DNA of 64,000 bases from a virus (IMGVR_UViG_3300032007_000001); one strand, 5' to 3'; shown: positions 30,371-58,450, counted from the stretch's first letter. The notes: a model not told the origin generated them from the letters alone. Program-made: numbers and translations.

Positions 30371-30399
30371 AAAACCGATGGAAAATATCCATCGGTTTT
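30371..30399 (-). terminator. Terminator ending the rSAM/TNSSS operon
   Basis: aaaaccgatgga-aaata-tccatcggtttt. Confidence 0.75.
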
Positions 30400-30402
30400 A
30401 TT

Positions 30403-30753
30403 TTATAAGATTCTTATTGTATCGTTATGAAAATTAATAGCAAAATATCTTAATCGTTCATAATAAAAATCATAATAACAATCGTTTCTCAAAAAATCAA
30501 TTAAATTAAACATTTCTTGCCGTATCATATAATCATTGTTTTCTTCAAATCTCCCAATTATTTTATCTTTTAAGTCATCAACAAAATCAAATAAAATATC
30601 TGTAATAAAATCTATTTCATCATAATCTTCTTCATTTTCTAAACCATCTAATGCGAAATGAAGTTCGTGATTTTTTATATACATTTTTGCACTAAATTCT
30701 ATTCTTTTAGGAGTTTTTGTAATGACTTCAAAATTCATTATTTGTTCTATCAT
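30403..30753 (-). CDS. Hypothetical protein (last gene of rSAM operon, lacks the TNSSS tag)
   Basis: ATGA overlap. Confidence 0.7.
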   Translation of the reverse strand: MIEQIMNFEVITKTPKRIEFSAKMYIKNHELHFALDGLENEEDYDEIDFITDILFDFVDDLKDKIIGRFEENNDYMIRQEMFNLIDFLRNDCYYDFYYERLRYFAINFHNDTIRIL

Positions 30754-31349
30754 TCATCTTCATCCCAAATTGTATAAACTTCATATTGTTTTTTATCAAA
30801 TTTATGTCTTTCTTCTACGTCATCGCCATCATCTGATATAATCAGAATCGATTTTTTATTAAATAAAAATCTTTTTACATTCTCTGGAGATTCAAACAAT
30901 CTCATAACACCAGCATTTTCGGACCAACTGGATTGATGGTCTATCATTGCTTTTTCAGATTTAATTATTCCTTCCATATAAGAAAATTCCAAATGAGAAT
31001 TTGTATGTTCAAAATACACATCATCCAATATTGATGTCCATTCTTGTTTTAATGATTGTTTTTGTTTATCGGTTAAATATGAAAATTCTTTTTCGACAAA
31101 ATCATTTAAGTCATTCCTATGTTCTTTTAATATGTATTTATCTTTATTCAAAGCCAAAATCGACAAAAAATTTAATTTATCATCAAACGACCTTAAAACT
31201 TCATAATGTCTTAAAAATTCCAATTCGCCTTTACGACCAACTATATATCTATTTTGTTGTGGAATATCTTCATCAAATTTATCTTTCTTGAATACAACCA
31301 AATAACTAGCAGAACTAGAATTTGTTACAAAATCAATTCTTTTTTTCAA
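30750..31349 (-). CDS. TNSSS-tag protein 4
   Basis: MKKRIDFVTNSSSASYLV. Confidence 0.8.
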   Translation of the reverse strand: MKKRIDFVTNSSSASYLVVFKKDKFDEDIPQQNRYIVGRKGELEFLRHYEVLRSFDDKLNFLSILALNKDKYILKEHRNDLNDFVEKEFSYLTDKQKQSLKQEWTSILDDVYFEHTNSHLEFSYMEGIIKSEKAMIDHQSSWSENAGVMRLFESPENVKRFLFNKKSILIISDDGDDVEERHKFDKKQYEVYTIWDEDE

Positions 31350-31833
31350 TTTTCTTCAACTCACTTTCGAGAAAATCATGAAATTCTTTATATGTCTTAA
31401 ATTTTTCTTTTGCCAACTTAAAAATTTCATTATTTGATTTTCCAAGCAACACATTTTTATAATTGTTAATATCGTCAGAACTGCATTCTTTCATTTGACA
31501 AATTGGACACAGCTCACTTGGAAAAATATAATATATATCTTCGTCTTCGTTATCTGTATACCATTTATCTAATGTTTCTAATAATTGATTTTTCGTAACA
31601 TCTTTAAGTATTTGTTTTACTTCTTCACCTGAAACATCTTTTGATTTTAGATATTCTGTTACATCTTTGTTATTCAAATTGATATGTTCTGTGCAAAATA
31701 AATGTCCATTTTCACATTCTACAAATTCATATTCTCTAAAATCTACATCATATCCGCTTTCTTCTCTTCCGCAAATATTGCAAATATAGCTAGAAGAACT
31801 TGAATTTGTAACGAAATCTTTTCTGATTTTCAT
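31333..31833 (-). CDS. TNSSS-tag protein 3, with zinc-finger Cys motifs
   Basis: MKIRKDFVTNSSSSSYI; CNIC, CENGHLFC, CPIC. Confidence 0.8.
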   Translation of the reverse strand: MKIRKDFVTNSSSSSYICNICGREESGYDVDFREYEFVECENGHLFCTEHINLNNKDVTEYLKSKDVSGEEVKQILKDVTKNQLLETLDKWYTDNEDEDIYYIFPSELCPICQMKECSSDDINNYKNVLLGKSNNEIFKLAKEKFKTYKEFHDFLESELKKIEKKN

Positions 31834-31845
31834 ATTTTCATCTCC

Positions 31846-32178
31846 TTACCATTCACTATCCAATAACTGGATTTTATCATTGTTTATTGAAAACACTTTT
31901 TGCATCATATCGGAAAACGCCTCATCATCATATGCAACGTCTTTTTGATAAATTTTCCAATTATTATTCAATAAATTTTTTATCTTTTCTTTTAATTTAT
32001 CATCACTAAAATCTGTTTCATCAAATATAAATTCTTGTGCCTTATACGTATCATTACCAACTGCATCAAGAATACCTTTTATTACATTCTTAAAAGATTC
32101 ATCCATTTCTTTTTCATTAACAGCAACAATAAAGGATGATGAACTGGAATTCGTTACAAAATCATTTCTTATTTTCAT
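31846..32178 (-). CDS. TNSSS-tag protein 2
   Basis: MKIRNDFVTNSSSSSFIV. Confidence 0.8.
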   Translation of the reverse strand: MKIRNDFVTNSSSSSFIVAVNEKEMDESFKNVIKGILDAVGNDTYKAQEFIFDETDFSDDKLKEKIKNLLNNNWKIYQKDVAYDDEAFSDMMQKVFSINNDKIQLLDSEW

Positions 32179-32630
32179 AAGTTAATTCTCCTTATAATAT
32201 TGCCATTGTTTTTGACAACTGTGGATTCAAAATCAAAACTAAATTCGTTGTCAACATTAATATTAAAAACATCTTTTGAATTATTAGAAATTATTTCTTT
32301 ATATGTGTCAATATCCAAAAAATCACAATTTGTAAATTCATTAATAAGATGAATTTTTGCAAATGTTTTATCTTCAAAACTATAAAGAAATTGCAATATC
32401 TTATCATCATCATGATATTTAATTTCTTTTTCCAAAGAACTATTATAATCCTCAATGAAAATAGAATTAAATATCCAATCAACGTAATCTTTTGGAGACT
32501 TTATTGAAATCTTTTTCATTTCTCTCAAAAAATATTGCTTCATATAACTATCAAAATTTTGTCCTTTTTCAAAAGAAACCAAAAATTGAGTAGAAGAAGA
32601 ATTTGTAATGAAATCATTTCTAATTTTCAT
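32175..32630 (-). CDS. TNSSS-tag protein 1
   Basis: MKIRNDFITNSSSTQFLV; ATGA overlap with the rSAM stop. Confidence 0.8.
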   Translation of the reverse strand: MKIRNDFITNSSSTQFLVSFEKGQNFDSYMKQYFLREMKKISIKSPKDYVDWIFNSIFIEDYNSSLEKEIKYHDDDKILQFLYSFEDKTFAKIHLINEFTNCDFLDIDTYKEIISNNSKDVFNINVDNEFSFDFESTVVKNNGNIIRRINL

Positions 32631-33772
32631 TTTTTATATTTCTCCTTTTTATCACACAACACTATTTCATGTTTGATTGGACATCCACCCATGCATATAA
32701 TTCTTTTATCGCAATTCATACAAGAATGCATAAGTCTGCTTCTAAAATCATTGAATTTATCAGATTCCCATGCTTCTTTTAATGTATGATTTCTTAAGTC
32801 TACGCCCCATTTCATTTCTTGGTCAAAACTACATGGCATCATATGCATATTAGCAGAAATATAAGCAGAAAATCTACCACCTTCACAAGTATCTATGGAA
32901 TTCTCATCTATGTCTTCTGAAAAATTTACAATTGCTGGAATAGAGCATGAATCAAATCCAATCTTAAACGGATGTTCTTTGGAAACCAAAAAAAAGAATT
33001 TTTGAATCTTTTCAGAATCGTTTTCCAACGTTAACATATTGTCAATTCTTCCAAGACCAACTGGTTTATATAACAAAAAAATAAATGCATTGATTGGATT
33101 TTCTTCAAAATTATAAATATAAATTTTATTATCGTCTTTCCATTGCAACATATGTTTTTCCAATAAATCAATTGCATCATTAATTGTCTCTTTTGAGAGA
33201 ACAAAATGTATATTCGTTTTACATCCAGCATCAATAAATTTTTTCAAAGCATCTACAGTAAATTTTTGATAATACCATGAAACAGCCACTGCACCACAAT
33301 ATTTTTTTGTAGTAACAACTGCGTCATCAGTCAAATCAATACCGGATGTAGTATAATTTGGAACGATATTATTGCTTCTTGTATATTCACATATTTCATT
33401 AAAATATTGATGGTCATTAGGATTACCAGCTCCACCAAGAGCTACTTGCATTAATCCGTTTTCTTTTCCTTCATCAATAATGGATTTATAATCATCTAAC
33501 TTCATGTCCTTCTCTGGGTCATATTTCCTTGCTCCTTGGTAGCAACCAGATATACTACCACCAGCACGACACAAACCCTTAGAAGCGGCCTTACAACCTC
33601 CCATGATACCGATGTCAAGCAACCCTGGAAAAGAACGCATAAATGGGTCTATGTCAGTATCTTTTCCATCTTTCAAAATTCCACTTCTTATATATTCACC
33701 TGTCAATGTATTAAAAACTTCTATAAATTTGAATTTATAATCAGAATATTTGAGAATATGATTGTTTTCCAA
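32627..33772 (-). CDS. Radical SAM/SPASM domain protein with atypical CX7CX8C motif
   Basis: LDIGIMGGC..C..CYQ; QVALGGAGNP; NYTTSG; SPASM CEGG..PCSF..CMNC..CMGGCP; AAGGAGG SD. Confidence 0.88.
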   Translation of the reverse strand: MENNHILKYSDYKFKFIEVFNTLTGEYIRSGILKDGKDTDIDPFMRSFPGLLDIGIMGGCKAASKGLCRAGGSISGCYQGARKYDPEKDMKLDDYKSIIDEGKENGLMQVALGGAGNPNDHQYFNEICEYTRSNNIVPNYTTSGIDLTDDAVVTTKKYCGAVAVSWYYQKFTVDALKKFIDAGCKTNIHFVLSKETINDAIDLLEKHMLQWKDDNKIYIYNFEENPINAFIFLLYKPVGLGRIDNMLTLENDSEKIQKFFFLVSKEHPFKIGFDSCSIPAIVNFSEDIDENSIDTCEGGRFSAYISANMHMMPCSFDQEMKWGVDLRNHTLKEAWESDKFNDFRSRLMHSCMNCDKRIICMGGCPIKHEIVLCDKKEKYKK

Positions 33773-33825
33773 GTTAAGTCCTCCTTAATTAAAAAAGCAT
33801 ACTTTGCAGTATGCTATTTTTTATA

Positions 33826-33855
33826 ATTATACCATAAAATTAATCATAAATACAA
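33826..33855 (-). promoter_or_regulatory. Sigma-A-like promoter for the rSAM operon, followed by an inverted repeat (33796..33815)
   Basis: TTGTAT-18-TGnTATAAT on the - strand; agcatac-6-gtatgct between promoter and RBS. Confidence 0.55.
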
Positions 33856-39570: not shown

Positions 39571-40656
39571 CTATTCATTAACTTTCCAGCATTGTGGGTC
39601 TGGACTATAGAAATTCCCGTTTGTTCCACAAGACACCGCTGGACATCCACGACAGAATGCAAGTAATTTGCAATCTTTACATTTTTCAAATTTATCAAAA
39701 TCTCTATAGTAATTCATTTTATCTCCAAGCCAAACTTCAGAAATATCATCTGTTAAAGCATTTCCAACAACAGAATCATTAATTCTTCTGCATGCCAACA
39801 AATCTCCATTTGGCAAGATTGTCATATGTCCAATTCCACAATGACAACCCGTATATATCGTATCATCATTTTCTTCTACATAATTTGGAGCATCCAATCT
39901 TCCAATTTCATAATGGAATAAATTCCATAGATGGTCCTTATATCTAAAACTCGTTGTACATCCAACACTTTCATAAAAATCAAAACGGTCTTGCATTTCT
40001 TCCAAAAATTTTCTATATCTTTCTGGAGTCAATCTATTGCTTTTATCTTCATAAACTGGAACGTATCTAGAAAACGTAAATCTTCTAGCTTTCCAAGCAA
40101 CCTCATCTACAAGCGATGGAATTTCATCGATATTCTTATCACTGACTGTAGACATAATAACACTATATAAATCATTTCTATTCAAACATTTTAATGCTTC
40201 AAATGTAGCATCATAACTTCCAGGTTTTCTAAACCAGTCGTGCGTTTCTTTTAATCCATCTAAAGACAATTGATATTTAGTACATCCACTATCTTTTAAT
40301 TTTTCAGCAACTTCGTCAGTTAAATGGAATGGATTGCCAAGAATAATAAATTCAATTTTATTTTTCTTTAATTCTTTTATCAAGTCCCAAAAATTCTTAT
40401 GAAGTAACGGGTCTCCACCAGTAATAGCAAACACTGGTACTCTATGTAATTTTTTACACGAACTAATAACATTATTCAAAACTTTTTGCATATTATCCCA
40501 TGACATTTCTACAAGATTTTTGTTTCCGCCATGGAAAATATAACAATGCTTGCATCTTTGGTCGCAATTATCCGTAATGTGCCATTGAAAAGATAATCCC
40601 ATTCTTATACTATCATCATTAGTCCAAGATTTCCACATATTTATGCGGTCTAACAA
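39571..40656 (-). CDS. Radical SAM/SPASM peptide maturase resembling the ACGX-system family
   Basis: FQWHITDNCDQRCKHCY (CX3CX2C); TGGDP; SPASM GCHCG..ACRR..CKDC..CRGCP..PDPQCW; GGAGG SD. Confidence 0.9.
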   Translation of the reverse strand: MLDRINMWKSWTNDDSIRMGLSFQWHITDNCDQRCKHCYIFHGGNKNLVEMSWDNMQKVLNNVISSCKKLHRVPVFAITGGDPLLHKNFWDLIKELKKNKIEFIILGNPFHLTDEVAEKLKDSGCTKYQLSLDGLKETHDWFRKPGSYDATFEALKCLNRNDLYSVIMSTVSDKNIDEIPSLVDEVAWKARRFTFSRYVPVYEDKSNRLTPERYRKFLEEMQDRFDFYESVGCTTSFRYKDHLWNLFHYEIGRLDAPNYVEENDDTIYTGCHCGIGHMTILPNGDLLACRRINDSVVGNALTDDISEVWLGDKMNYYRDFDKFEKCKDCKLLAFCRGCPAVSCGTNGNFYSPDPQCWKVNE

Positions 40657-57433: not shown

Positions 57434-58450
57434 TTAATCTATAAAAATTTCTCGTAATTCTTTAATAGGCATAAAAAATTGTTTGCTTACATTACAAAAG
57501 TAATTATTCATAGTTTCAGTACTTTGTAGCATACATCCGCCTCTACAATATACATTAACATCGCAATTAATGCATTGTTCTTTTCTATGTTCTTTATAAA
57601 AATTTAATACCTTTTTTGTAATTAAATAATTATTATTCTTTACATTTCCTAAAACAATATCAGAATTATGACATAAATATAATTTACCATCATTGGTTAC
57701 GTTAATGATATTCATTCCATTCATGCATTTGGGAAATCTATAATCATATTTATGCAAATCTCTTTCTATAAGAGAATCAATATATAAGTCACTTGCTTCT
57801 ACATTTGTTTTTTCATCTTGTACATCAATATAATGATTGCATAATTCTTTCATTTGATTATATAATAAATTAGAATCTATGTTACTTAAATCATTTAAAT
57901 TATTATTATTTAGAAGCAAATCTAAGTTTGTTGTTACGTGTCTTTTATGTTTTTGAATATATTTTTTATTGAATTCTTTAATAGAATCAAACCAATCTTT
58001 TGGATAATTATATTTTGTAATAACACCTGTTAAACATAATCCTTTTATTTTTAAGAGTAAATCTTCTTTTTCTTTTAGAACGTTATACCCTCTAGTAATA
58101 TCAGAATTATTACCGTCATAACTAACACCAACAGAAAATAAATTCTTATTAAAGTAATTAACATATTCTTCATTTAATAATTTTCCATTCGTTACAATAT
58201 TGTATCTTATTTTTCTTTTGAATTCATTGACATATTTTTTTATATCTTCAAAAAAGATAAGCGGTTCTCCGCCAAAAAATGTTAATTTTGATTTTTCTTT
58301 TTGAGAAGATATGATTTTGTGAATATAATCAAAAACATTTGTATCAATTTCATGACTTAGTTGTTCATTGACTATATTATGTTGTATGCAATACTTACAA
58401 TTTAAATTGCATTCATGGCCAAGCATTATAAAAATATTTGCTATTTTCAT
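57434..58450 (-). CDS. Radical SAM/SPASM domain protein (anSME/thioether-maturase-like)
   Basis: CNLNCKYC; FFGGEPL; VTNG; VSYDG; SPASM C..G..YLCH..CINC..CRGGC..C. Confidence 0.9.
   Translation of the reverse strand: MKIANIFIMLGHECNLNCKYCIQHNIVNEQLSHEIDTNVFDYIHKIISSQKEKSKLTFFGGEPLIFFEDIKKYVNEFKRKIRYNIVTNGKLLNEEYVNYFNKNLFSVGVSYDGNNSDITRGYNVLKEKEDLLLKIKGLCLTGVITKYNYPKDWFDSIKEFNKKYIQKHKRHVTTNLDLLLNNNNLNDLSNIDSNLLYNQMKELCNHYIDVQDEKTNVEASDLYIDSLIERDLHKYDYRFPKCMNGMNIINVTNDGKLYLCHNSDIVLGNVKNNNYLITKKVLNFYKEHRKEQCINCDVNVYCRGGCMLQSTETMNNYFCNVSKQFFMPIKELREIFID

Follow-up and report, generated by a model that had tools for sequence, protein, structure and literature searches.

A divergent radical SAM/SPASM enzyme linked to a portable N-terminal tag on unrelated phage and bacterial proteins: a candidate protein-modification system

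Why does a phage gene cluster place the same short peptide at the head of four otherwise dissimilar proteins, beside a gene for a radical enzyme? We address this question for a minus-strand cluster at positions 30403-33772 of a stretch of 64,000 nucleotides (nt), termed the window here, which corresponds to bases 353438-417437 of the single 504,279-bp phage record IMGVR_UViG_3300032007_000001 (G+C content 29.7%; complete according to CheckV). The cluster encodes a divergent radical S-adenosylmethionine (SAM) enzyme with a SPASM domain and four proteins that share an N-terminal sequence, termed the tag. An original prediction, made from this DNA sequence, held that the tag is a portable substrate of the enzyme. 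The results presented here uphold the portability, add a two-way genomic linkage and a covariation between tag residue 6 and enzyme residue 185, and leave the modification itself as a conditional part of the proposal. With a judgment that is evenly poised, we propose a widespread two-part system of a radical SAM/SPASM enzyme and mostly small, acidic, cytoplasmic tag-headed proteins, in which the enzyme would mark the tag on the full-size protein.

The four tagged products of the window begin M-K-[IK]-R-x-D-F-[VI]-T-N-S-S-S-x-x-[FY], and the N-termini first read for these open reading frames (ORFs) of 110-199 amino acids (aa) agree with our translations. Across the family, the tag is a near-invariant segment of 16 residues, M-K-[IV]-R-x-D-F-V-T-N-S-S-S-S-S-[FY]. 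In 275 distinct tags from the fetched loci, positions 2, 4 and 6-16 are conserved at 92-100%, and conservation collapses past position 18. A HMMER profile search of 1.84 billion representatives located the tag in 5990 clusters, and in 144 of the best 150 profile matches it lies exactly at Met1. The serine codons of the tag are drawn from both the TCN and the AGY boxes, with 2-8 identical residues per pair differing in codon. The constraint thus acts at the protein level, as had been proposed, and the switching between codon boxes rules out a shared RNA or translation-start element, which was considered as a candidate. The PHROG family phrog_7397, for which a function is not known, matches only the first 20-27 residues of tag proteins 1, 3 and 4.

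Behind the tag, the proteins differ. Once the first 20 residues are removed, there is no significant pairwise similarity among the four proteins of the window (E 0.98 or worse), in line with the earlier claim that nothing obvious is shared past approximately 18 residues. These 16 residues also begin a double-BRCT protein, a 712-aa protein matching the leucine-rich repeat (LRR) family LRR_5, zinc-finger proteins and a 257-aa type. In other proteins the tag leads straight into a membrane helix or a signal segment of the lipobox type. In addition, there are tag-bearing mini-ORFs of 26-47 aa. Because the tag precedes such BRCT, LRR, membrane-anchored, zinc-finger and unrelated small bodies, our data support its role as a portable N-terminal element that is not a strand of one common fold, as was originally suggested.

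If the tag were instead the best-conserved strand of a single fold, the genes would be ordinary divergent paralogs. The commonest body does form a true alpha/beta domain family of 105-145 aa that aligns end to end, and two proteins of this genome, of 110 and 113 aa, retain weak similarity past the tag (E 0.001). Moreover, residues 13-20 form strand 1 of the sheet in an AlphaFold2 (AF2) model of the 110-aa protein with a mean predicted local distance difference test (pLDDT) score of 89.2. In the same model residues 1-12 are disordered and fall outside the predicted fold (pLDDT 54 for the first ten residues), however, and a single paralog family accounts neither for the identical head on BRCT, LRR, membrane-anchored and zinc-finger proteins nor for window bodies that are mutually without significant similarity, so that we regard it as very improbable. 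A Foldseek search of the 110-aa model against the PDB gave nothing below E 0.08, with generic ferredoxin-like or S6-like topologies only, and a search of the Atlas with this model returned unnamed viral clusters only. The 110-aa protein had no tblastn match among cultured phages, probably because the low-complexity filter masks the serine run, given that a profile search found tag genes in the phages Matisse and GuL6.

Some body types recur. The zinc-finger-like body of tag protein 3, to which Pfam zinc-finger models match weakly, is also present in 35 of 66 distinct viral loci and in the loci L011, L013, L333 and L334. Tag protein 4 shares 31% identity over 180 residues with P0244. We had considered an "IDHQS" body type as a fixed core, and the regular expression for it failed to generalize; no core set is claimed beyond the zinc-finger type. 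The bodies are strongly acidic, with a median net charge of -12 among the best 150 profile matches. The median length of the tagged partners is 128-138 aa. Among the shortest tag ORFs, one upstream of the enzyme gene of Schaedlerella arabinosiphila DSM 106076 (L104:4673-4984) ends after 26 residues and represents a gene in decay or else a natural peptide that consists of the tag only, and another one comprises 36 aa (L087). In two bacterial loci (L169:6071-8077 and L156:6062-7486) the tag runs directly into a hydrophobic segment with a lipobox-like LINAC at its end, or into an Ala-rich one that contains an Ala-x-Ala site; in both, the tag is the n-region of an apparent signal peptide or anchor and carries the variant S14T. 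The 199-aa tag protein 4 resembles Tad2-like anti-Thoeris proteins at a borderline template modeling (TM) score of 0.49 on a poor Atlas model, with no sequence support from Pfam.

Enzyme and tag are linked in the genomes when approached from either side. Starting from the enzyme, a tag ORF was found within 5 kb in 149 of 160 loci (74/80 viral, 75/80 bacterial). All of the 361 tag ORFs were on the strand of the enzyme gene, 322 of them downstream of it and the other 39 upstream, with many adjoining or overlapping it. Starting from the tag, the enzyme gene was present within 10 kb in 129 of 150 loci (69/76 bacterial, 60/74 viral). The tag-seeded exceptions are mostly contig ends or records that are 9-60% complete, and others have the enzyme elsewhere on the record; three of the exceptions belong to a 416-kb relative of this phage. 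In these loci, co-occurrence was confirmed by use of a tag profile, and tag proteins do not commonly lack a radical SAM neighbor. Phage loci have up to eight tag genes each, in tandem arrays. On Lachnospiraceae chromosomes the usual arrangement is a two-gene cassette in which the enzyme gene is immediately preceded by that of a 124-aa tag protein.

A second line of evidence comes from tag position 6, which is Asp in 93% of tags and Gly, Ser or Ala in some lineages. Asp and Gly are mixed in 2 of 113 multi-tag loci, compared with 47 expected by shuffling. Loci with G6 contain paralogs with unrelated bodies, and homologs of the same bodies in other phages have D6; several genes that depend on a single enzyme therefore underwent the change in parallel. 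A search of the enzyme alignment for columns in which every G6 lineage departs from the rest singled out residue 185: D6 goes with K or R185 in 171 of 173 loci, and G, S or A6 goes with T185 in 24 of 26. In a T4-like clade, G6 is paired with Q185. In a forward test on five further T185 enzymes from the homolog list, tags were all or mostly G6 or S6 in four cases and mixed in one. Two tag proteins of the G6/S9 type were traced to short contigs with little information. Since the loss of an acidic residue on the tag is matched by the loss of a basic residue on the enzyme, we infer that tag residue 6 directly contacts enzyme residue 185, with a salt bridge between D6 and K/R185. Judged from these sequence patterns, the enzyme very probably binds the tag.

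The linkage and the covariation also bear on the possibility that the tag is an independent sorting signal, for capsid targeting, secretion or degradation, with an incidental or indirect radical SAM neighborhood. Unrelated internal proteins of phage T4 share an N-terminal peptide, and some tag genes are far from the enzyme gene, both of which fit such a signal. Yet the linkage to the enzyme is near-obligate in both directions, tag residue 6 tracks a residue of the enzyme, and the two-gene cassettes of bacterial chromosomes are located away from obvious virion genes. The tag is also hydrophilic, unlike Sec or Tat signals. Taken together, sorting is quite improbable as the function of the tag. 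The capsid-targeting sequence of T4 resembles the tag in being a short N-terminal peptide on otherwise unrelated small phage proteins; there is no likeness in sequence, and the tag differs by its presence in bacterial cassettes, its tie to a radical SAM enzyme and its covariation with it.

The enzyme itself belongs to a large and divergent family (4777 clusters at E <= 1e-5). Its SPASM domain scores above the cut-off of both Pfam PF13186 (31.3 bits; cut-off 21.5) and TIGR04085 (29.7 bits; cut-off 27). Eight SPASM cysteines (C276, C296, C314, C351, C354, C360, C364 and C373), which include a Cx2Cx5Cx3C motif, are each conserved in at least 200 of approximately 204 aligned homologs. The cluster loop, which was scorable in 202 homologs, has at least three cysteines after strand 1 in all 202, with variable spacing: Cx7Cx6C in 163 and Cx3Cx2C in 3. 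The enzyme family thus retains all cluster ligands. In place of the GGE motif the window enzyme has GGAGNP, and GGxG[DN] is kept in 202 of 204 homologs. An AF2 model (pLDDT 91.8) shows alternating strands and helices over residues 51-263, consistent with a partial (beta/alpha)6 barrel. Residues 1-50 are predicted to form three strands and no helices, that is, a small conserved beta-sheet and not a winged-helix RiPP recognition element (RRE), where RiPP denotes a ribosomally synthesized and posttranslationally modified peptide.

In Foldseek searches, every one of the best 50 listed matches of the enzyme model was a radical SAM enzyme. The nearest solved folds are SuiB, PqqE, anSME, SkfB, CteB and TigE, SPASM or twitch enzymes that all modify peptides or proteins. 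Of these, SuiB matches best in structure (E 2.6e-13, TM 0.66), and anSME chains reach TM 0.55-0.58. A phmmer search of the enzyme against PDB sequences had no match, and a profile search of these sequences had SkfB as its sole match (E 3.6e-5). phrog_7293, also of a function not known, matches residues 19-360 (E 1.4e-27). None of the NCBIfam maturase models reaches its cut-off, and all are far below it for the window enzyme.

By comparison with known systems, the arrangement is closest in working to anSME with its sulfatases and to multi-precursor RiPP maturases, and membership of both by sequence failed. Like the tag-linked enzyme, anSME/AtsB is a radical SAM/SPASM enzyme with two fully Cys-ligated auxiliary clusters, without an RRE domain and without a protease or exporter as partner; its targets are full-size proteins, in which it oxidizes Ser or Cys within a short motif close to the N-terminus. 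The anSME model TIGR03942, however, scores 17.4 bits against a cut-off of 349.45, the cluster loop of the window enzyme is noncanonical, the tag contains no (C/S)xPxR, and there is no sulfatase in the cluster. Furthermore, anSME serves one enzyme family at an internal active-site motif, whereas here many unrelated proteins carry the tag at their extreme N-terminus. RiPP maturases (SuiB-SuiA of streptide, SkfB, CteB/SCIFF and PqqE) likewise have the enzyme gene beside one to several substrate genes, and their substrates have a conserved N-terminal recognition sequence and a differing remainder. Those substrates are peptides of 20-60 aa, in contrast to folded partners of 100-700 aa here, and the tag is far more invariant than RiPP leaders and exactly at Met1. 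A winged-helix (PqqD-like) RRE is not predicted, and the inspected loci contain no leader protease or exporter.

Two further comparisons are of interest. F7-V8-T9 of the tag resembles the aromatic-x-x motif of triceptide (three-residue cyclophane) maturases, but the enzyme has no match to cyclophane models, of the YhhB type or other. The FxSxx-peptide radical SAM/SPASM modules of VMAP ternary conflict systems also place such a gene beside variable proteins or peptides with a short motif of aromatic and Ser residues in conflict contexts; in these modules the conserved piece is C-terminal and processed by a peptidase, and the systems are centered on an NTPase (Kaur, Burroughs, Iyer and Aravind 2020, PMC7159879). 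The conserved piece described here is N-terminal, and such partners are absent. The cluster of the window has M-K-x-R-x-[DGS]-F-V-[TS]-N-S-S-S at Met1 and a family enzyme on the same strand, which together define the tag system, unnamed and defined in this analysis, with the enzyme in the same locus or genome. Full-text literature searches for motif strings, and for SPASM together with phage and N-terminal, returned no description of this enzyme-tag system; its kind, a radical SAM/SPASM posttranslational modification with a shared recognition sequence, is itself known.

Whether binding is followed by chemistry on the tag is, in our estimation, close to an even question, and the sequence evidence makes a covalent modification within the tag a serious proposition. 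Several considerations point toward the tag as the site of action: the bodies have nothing in common that could be a substrate site, the peptide is invariant on both faces and some ORFs barely exceed it, the tag is flexible and cytoplasmic, and the enzyme keeps its cluster ligands and resembles SPASM enzymes that modify proteins or peptides. In the proposed mechanism, the enzyme would first bind the free, flexible N-terminal peptide, presumably with Asp6 in contact with Lys/Arg185. It would then conduct a radical reaction on a residue of the invariant segment T9-S15, most plausibly the reactive site, by use of the SAM cluster and two auxiliary clusters. The covalent mark would stay on the full-size protein, with no RiPP-like cleavage or export. 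Candidate chemistries are an anSME-like oxidation of a Ser C-beta, or the formation of a crosslink or cyclophane in which F7 or T9 takes part.

A number of observations weigh against this reading. The canonical CxxxCxxC is absent from the window enzyme, which has Cx7Cx8C instead (C60, C68 and C77), and its match to Radical_SAM (PF04055) begins after the cluster loop and scores 24.2 bits, under the Pfam gathering cut-off of 29.5. Given this missing motif and low score, SAM cleavage by the enzyme is presumptive. As to the covariation, one T185 locus has mostly D6 tags, and approximately 7 changes on the tree yield only four supported independent pairs, of which 3 are concordant, 0 opposite and 1 unchanged (sign test p ~0.25). 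In the AF2 model residue 185 is directly before barrel strand 5, where it may or may not face the substrate cavity. Two of the six tag genes of this genome, at 289867-290208 (113 aa) and 440309-440776 (155 aa) of the full record (G000), both on the minus strand, are at least 20 kb from the enzyme gene, and neither adjoins a SPASM enzyme. Similarly, Matisse and GuL6 have two tag genes each, found by profile search, approximately 20-24 kb from the enzyme gene. Finally, the conserved N-terminal piece of known RiPP systems is usually a handle and not the modified site.

The last point leads to an alternative in which the tag only binds, as a docking handle: the bodies would recruit or regulate an enzyme that acts on another target, or the tag would be a leader and the body the part that is modified. 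Both linkage and covariation fit binding without catalysis on the tag, one enzyme would serve up to eight tagged proteins, and BRCT and LRR bodies are typical interaction modules. On the other hand, the invariance of both peptide faces, including five consecutive Ser, goes beyond what strand docking usually needs. The bodies are unrelated and lack a shared site that could be modified, the mini-ORFs of 26-36 aa consist of little else than a tag, and no constant third gene that could be the true substrate stood out in the loci with genes listed, a subset of all loci. Pure docking is the main alternative to the proposed reading, and we consider it unlikely.

Equally, a modified N-terminal peptide or mini-protein might be cut off as the product, as in RiPP biosynthesis, with the larger bodies as carriers. 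The tag-only mini-ORFs are in agreement with this, the tags that form an n-region before a lipobox or Ala-x-Ala site could be cut, and the closest solved folds include the RiPP maturases SuiB, SkfB and CteB. Nevertheless, none of the loci with genes listed, phage or bacterial, contains a protease or an exporter, nor was an immunity gene found with the pair in the inspected loci, which argues against a classical released RiPP, as the original prediction had held. An invariant product would also amount to a single peptide, yet the bodies diversify and are kept as subfamilies, and the N-terminal 50 residues of the enzyme are predicted to be free of an RRE. A released peptide is consequently an improbable outcome.

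A role in phage-host conflict would be compatible with our data, because the bodies are acidic, fast-diversifying and tandem in phages, and two-gene cassettes are located in bacterial variable regions. Only tentatively, and as something we consider possible but doubtful, we suggest a radical SAM modification of unknown type on Thr, Asn or Ser of the tag, by which phages and mobile elements of gut bacteria would arm, stabilize or switch changing small acidic effectors, probably in such a conflict. PADLOC models of known anti-phage defense gave no meaningful match for any of the six proteins of the cluster. In Lachnospiraceae bacterium NK4A144 (L209:10001-11473), a cassette of a 126-aa tag protein and the enzyme is, as judged by eye, directly upstream of an apparent type I CRISPR-Cas effector operon and downstream of a gene for a 583-aa ATPase-like protein. 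In another locus (L015), the pair comes after a gene for a dynamin-family GTPase. In a 419-kb relative of this phage (L011:4166-5182), an IS605 OrfB/Cas12f-like (TnpB) gene is approximately 240 nt upstream of the tagged zinc-finger gene, which precedes the enzyme gene.

Relatives of the enzyme (29% identity) are encoded by 173 cultured T4-like phages (Slopekvirus, Pseudotevenvirus and others), the hosts of which are Klebsiella, Enterobacter, Cronobacter, Citrobacter and Escherichia. The enzyme gene of these phages has no tag neighbors. The sister form of the tag in Matisse and GuL6 reads MKIRSGFVSNSSSSSF; in Matisse, the enzyme is gp164 and the tag proteins are gp113 and gp118. Homologs of the two T4-like tag proteins were found in 174-175 records, spread over genera in the same way as the enzyme; this co-distribution is weak as independent evidence, because it concerns a single clade. 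T4-like phages of Klebsiella and Escherichia are laboratory models, so that the system could be tested at the bench, and together with the predicted D6-K185 contact these cultured carriers make the question directly testable. The covariation of tag residue 6 with enzyme residue 185 and the sister form in cultured T4-like phages are new here.

Should the enzyme indeed modify the tag, the pair would constitute a protein-modification system that is both new and very abundant, with thousands of enzyme clusters and approximately 6000 clusters of tag proteins, carried by gut and rumen phages, megaphages, T4-like phages of Klebsiella and Escherichia, and Clostridia chromosomes. Radical SAM/SPASM chemistry would then reach arbitrary full-size proteins, beyond peptides and sulfatases, by way of a 16-residue tag, as a protein-level counterpart of RiPP maturation. 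Such a tag would in principle be transplantable onto any protein, with an enzymatic protein-labeling handle as the obvious use. It would also provide the first functional lead for a large block of "hypothetical" phage genes.

The organization of the cluster is given in Table 1. The six ORFs first read from the sequence were recovered, all on the minus strand and with the same boundaries. The three predicted 4-nt overlaps are present at the junctions 32627/32630, 32175/32178 and 30750/30753, and the remaining two junctions have a 12-nt gap and a 17-nt overlap. The terminator predicted at the end of the cluster is real, and the terminator scan found four terminator-like sites compared with 0.7 expected. 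A single six-gene operon with its own promoter, as originally described, is supported in part only, since the sixth gene is not conserved in the closest related locus and the promoter is no more than plausible. The putative promoter has a perfect extended -10 element (TGnTATAAT), and it was not called by the consensus promoter scan because its weak -35 element (TTGTAT) matches at 3 of 6 positions only. A hairpin located between this promoter and the ribosome-binding site (RBS) of the enzyme gene might terminate the gene upstream, or it might be a structure of the 5' leader or for read-through control. The untagged 116-aa ORF does not resemble the gene that takes its place in the closest related locus (L011) and, lacking a counterpart there, was not counted as a member of the system. 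The cluster had no megablast match among cultured phages.

Table 1. Features of the tag cluster, with positions counted from the first base of the window.
Feature	Position	Strand	Remarks
Putative promoter	33826..33855	-	TTGTAT, 18 nt, TGgTATAAT (extended -10); read from sequence
Hairpin and T-run between putative promoter and enzyme RBS	33796..33815	-	8-bp stem; terminator-like site
Divergent radical SAM/SPASM enzyme gene	32627..33772	-	381 aa; TTG start, seven bases 3' of AAGGAGG
Tag protein 1	32175..32630	-	151 aa; net charge -6; N-terminus MKIRNDFITNSSSTQF; no Pfam/NCBIfam family
Tag protein 2	31846..32178	-	110 aa; net charge -8; commonest small alpha/beta body type; phrog_7397 E 2.9e-5
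Tag protein 3	31333..31833	-	166 aa; 7 Cys; Cys/His-rich, zinc-finger-like (CxxCG...GHxFCxxH...CPIC)
Tag protein 4	30750..31349	-	199 aa; TTG start; body is a conserved subfamily of its own; no named family
Untagged acidic ORF	30403..30753	-	116 aa; net charge -13; overlaps tag protein 4 gene by 4 nt
Intrinsic terminator at cluster end	30371..30399	-	12-bp stem, 5-nt loop, T-run

Of the two tag genes outside the window, with neighbors judged by eye, that at 289867-290208 of the record is located between a thymidylate-synthase-like gene and a PHP-domain gene, and that at 440309-440776 is upstream of an isochorismatase/nicotinamidase-like gene and an NrdG-like gene. The window encodes two other SPASM enzymes, which belong to other families and have no tag neighbors. 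One of these (39571-40656, minus strand) matches TIGR04340, the ACGX-system enzyme, at 480.6 bits against a cut-off of 400; apart from the SPASM motif, it is not related to the tag-linked enzyme. The other one (57434-58450, minus strand) has PapB, SCIFF and QhpD-type maturases as its best matches, all of them below the cut-off. The phage thus encodes at least three SPASM enzymes and, at G000 438972-439463, an NrdG-like activase.

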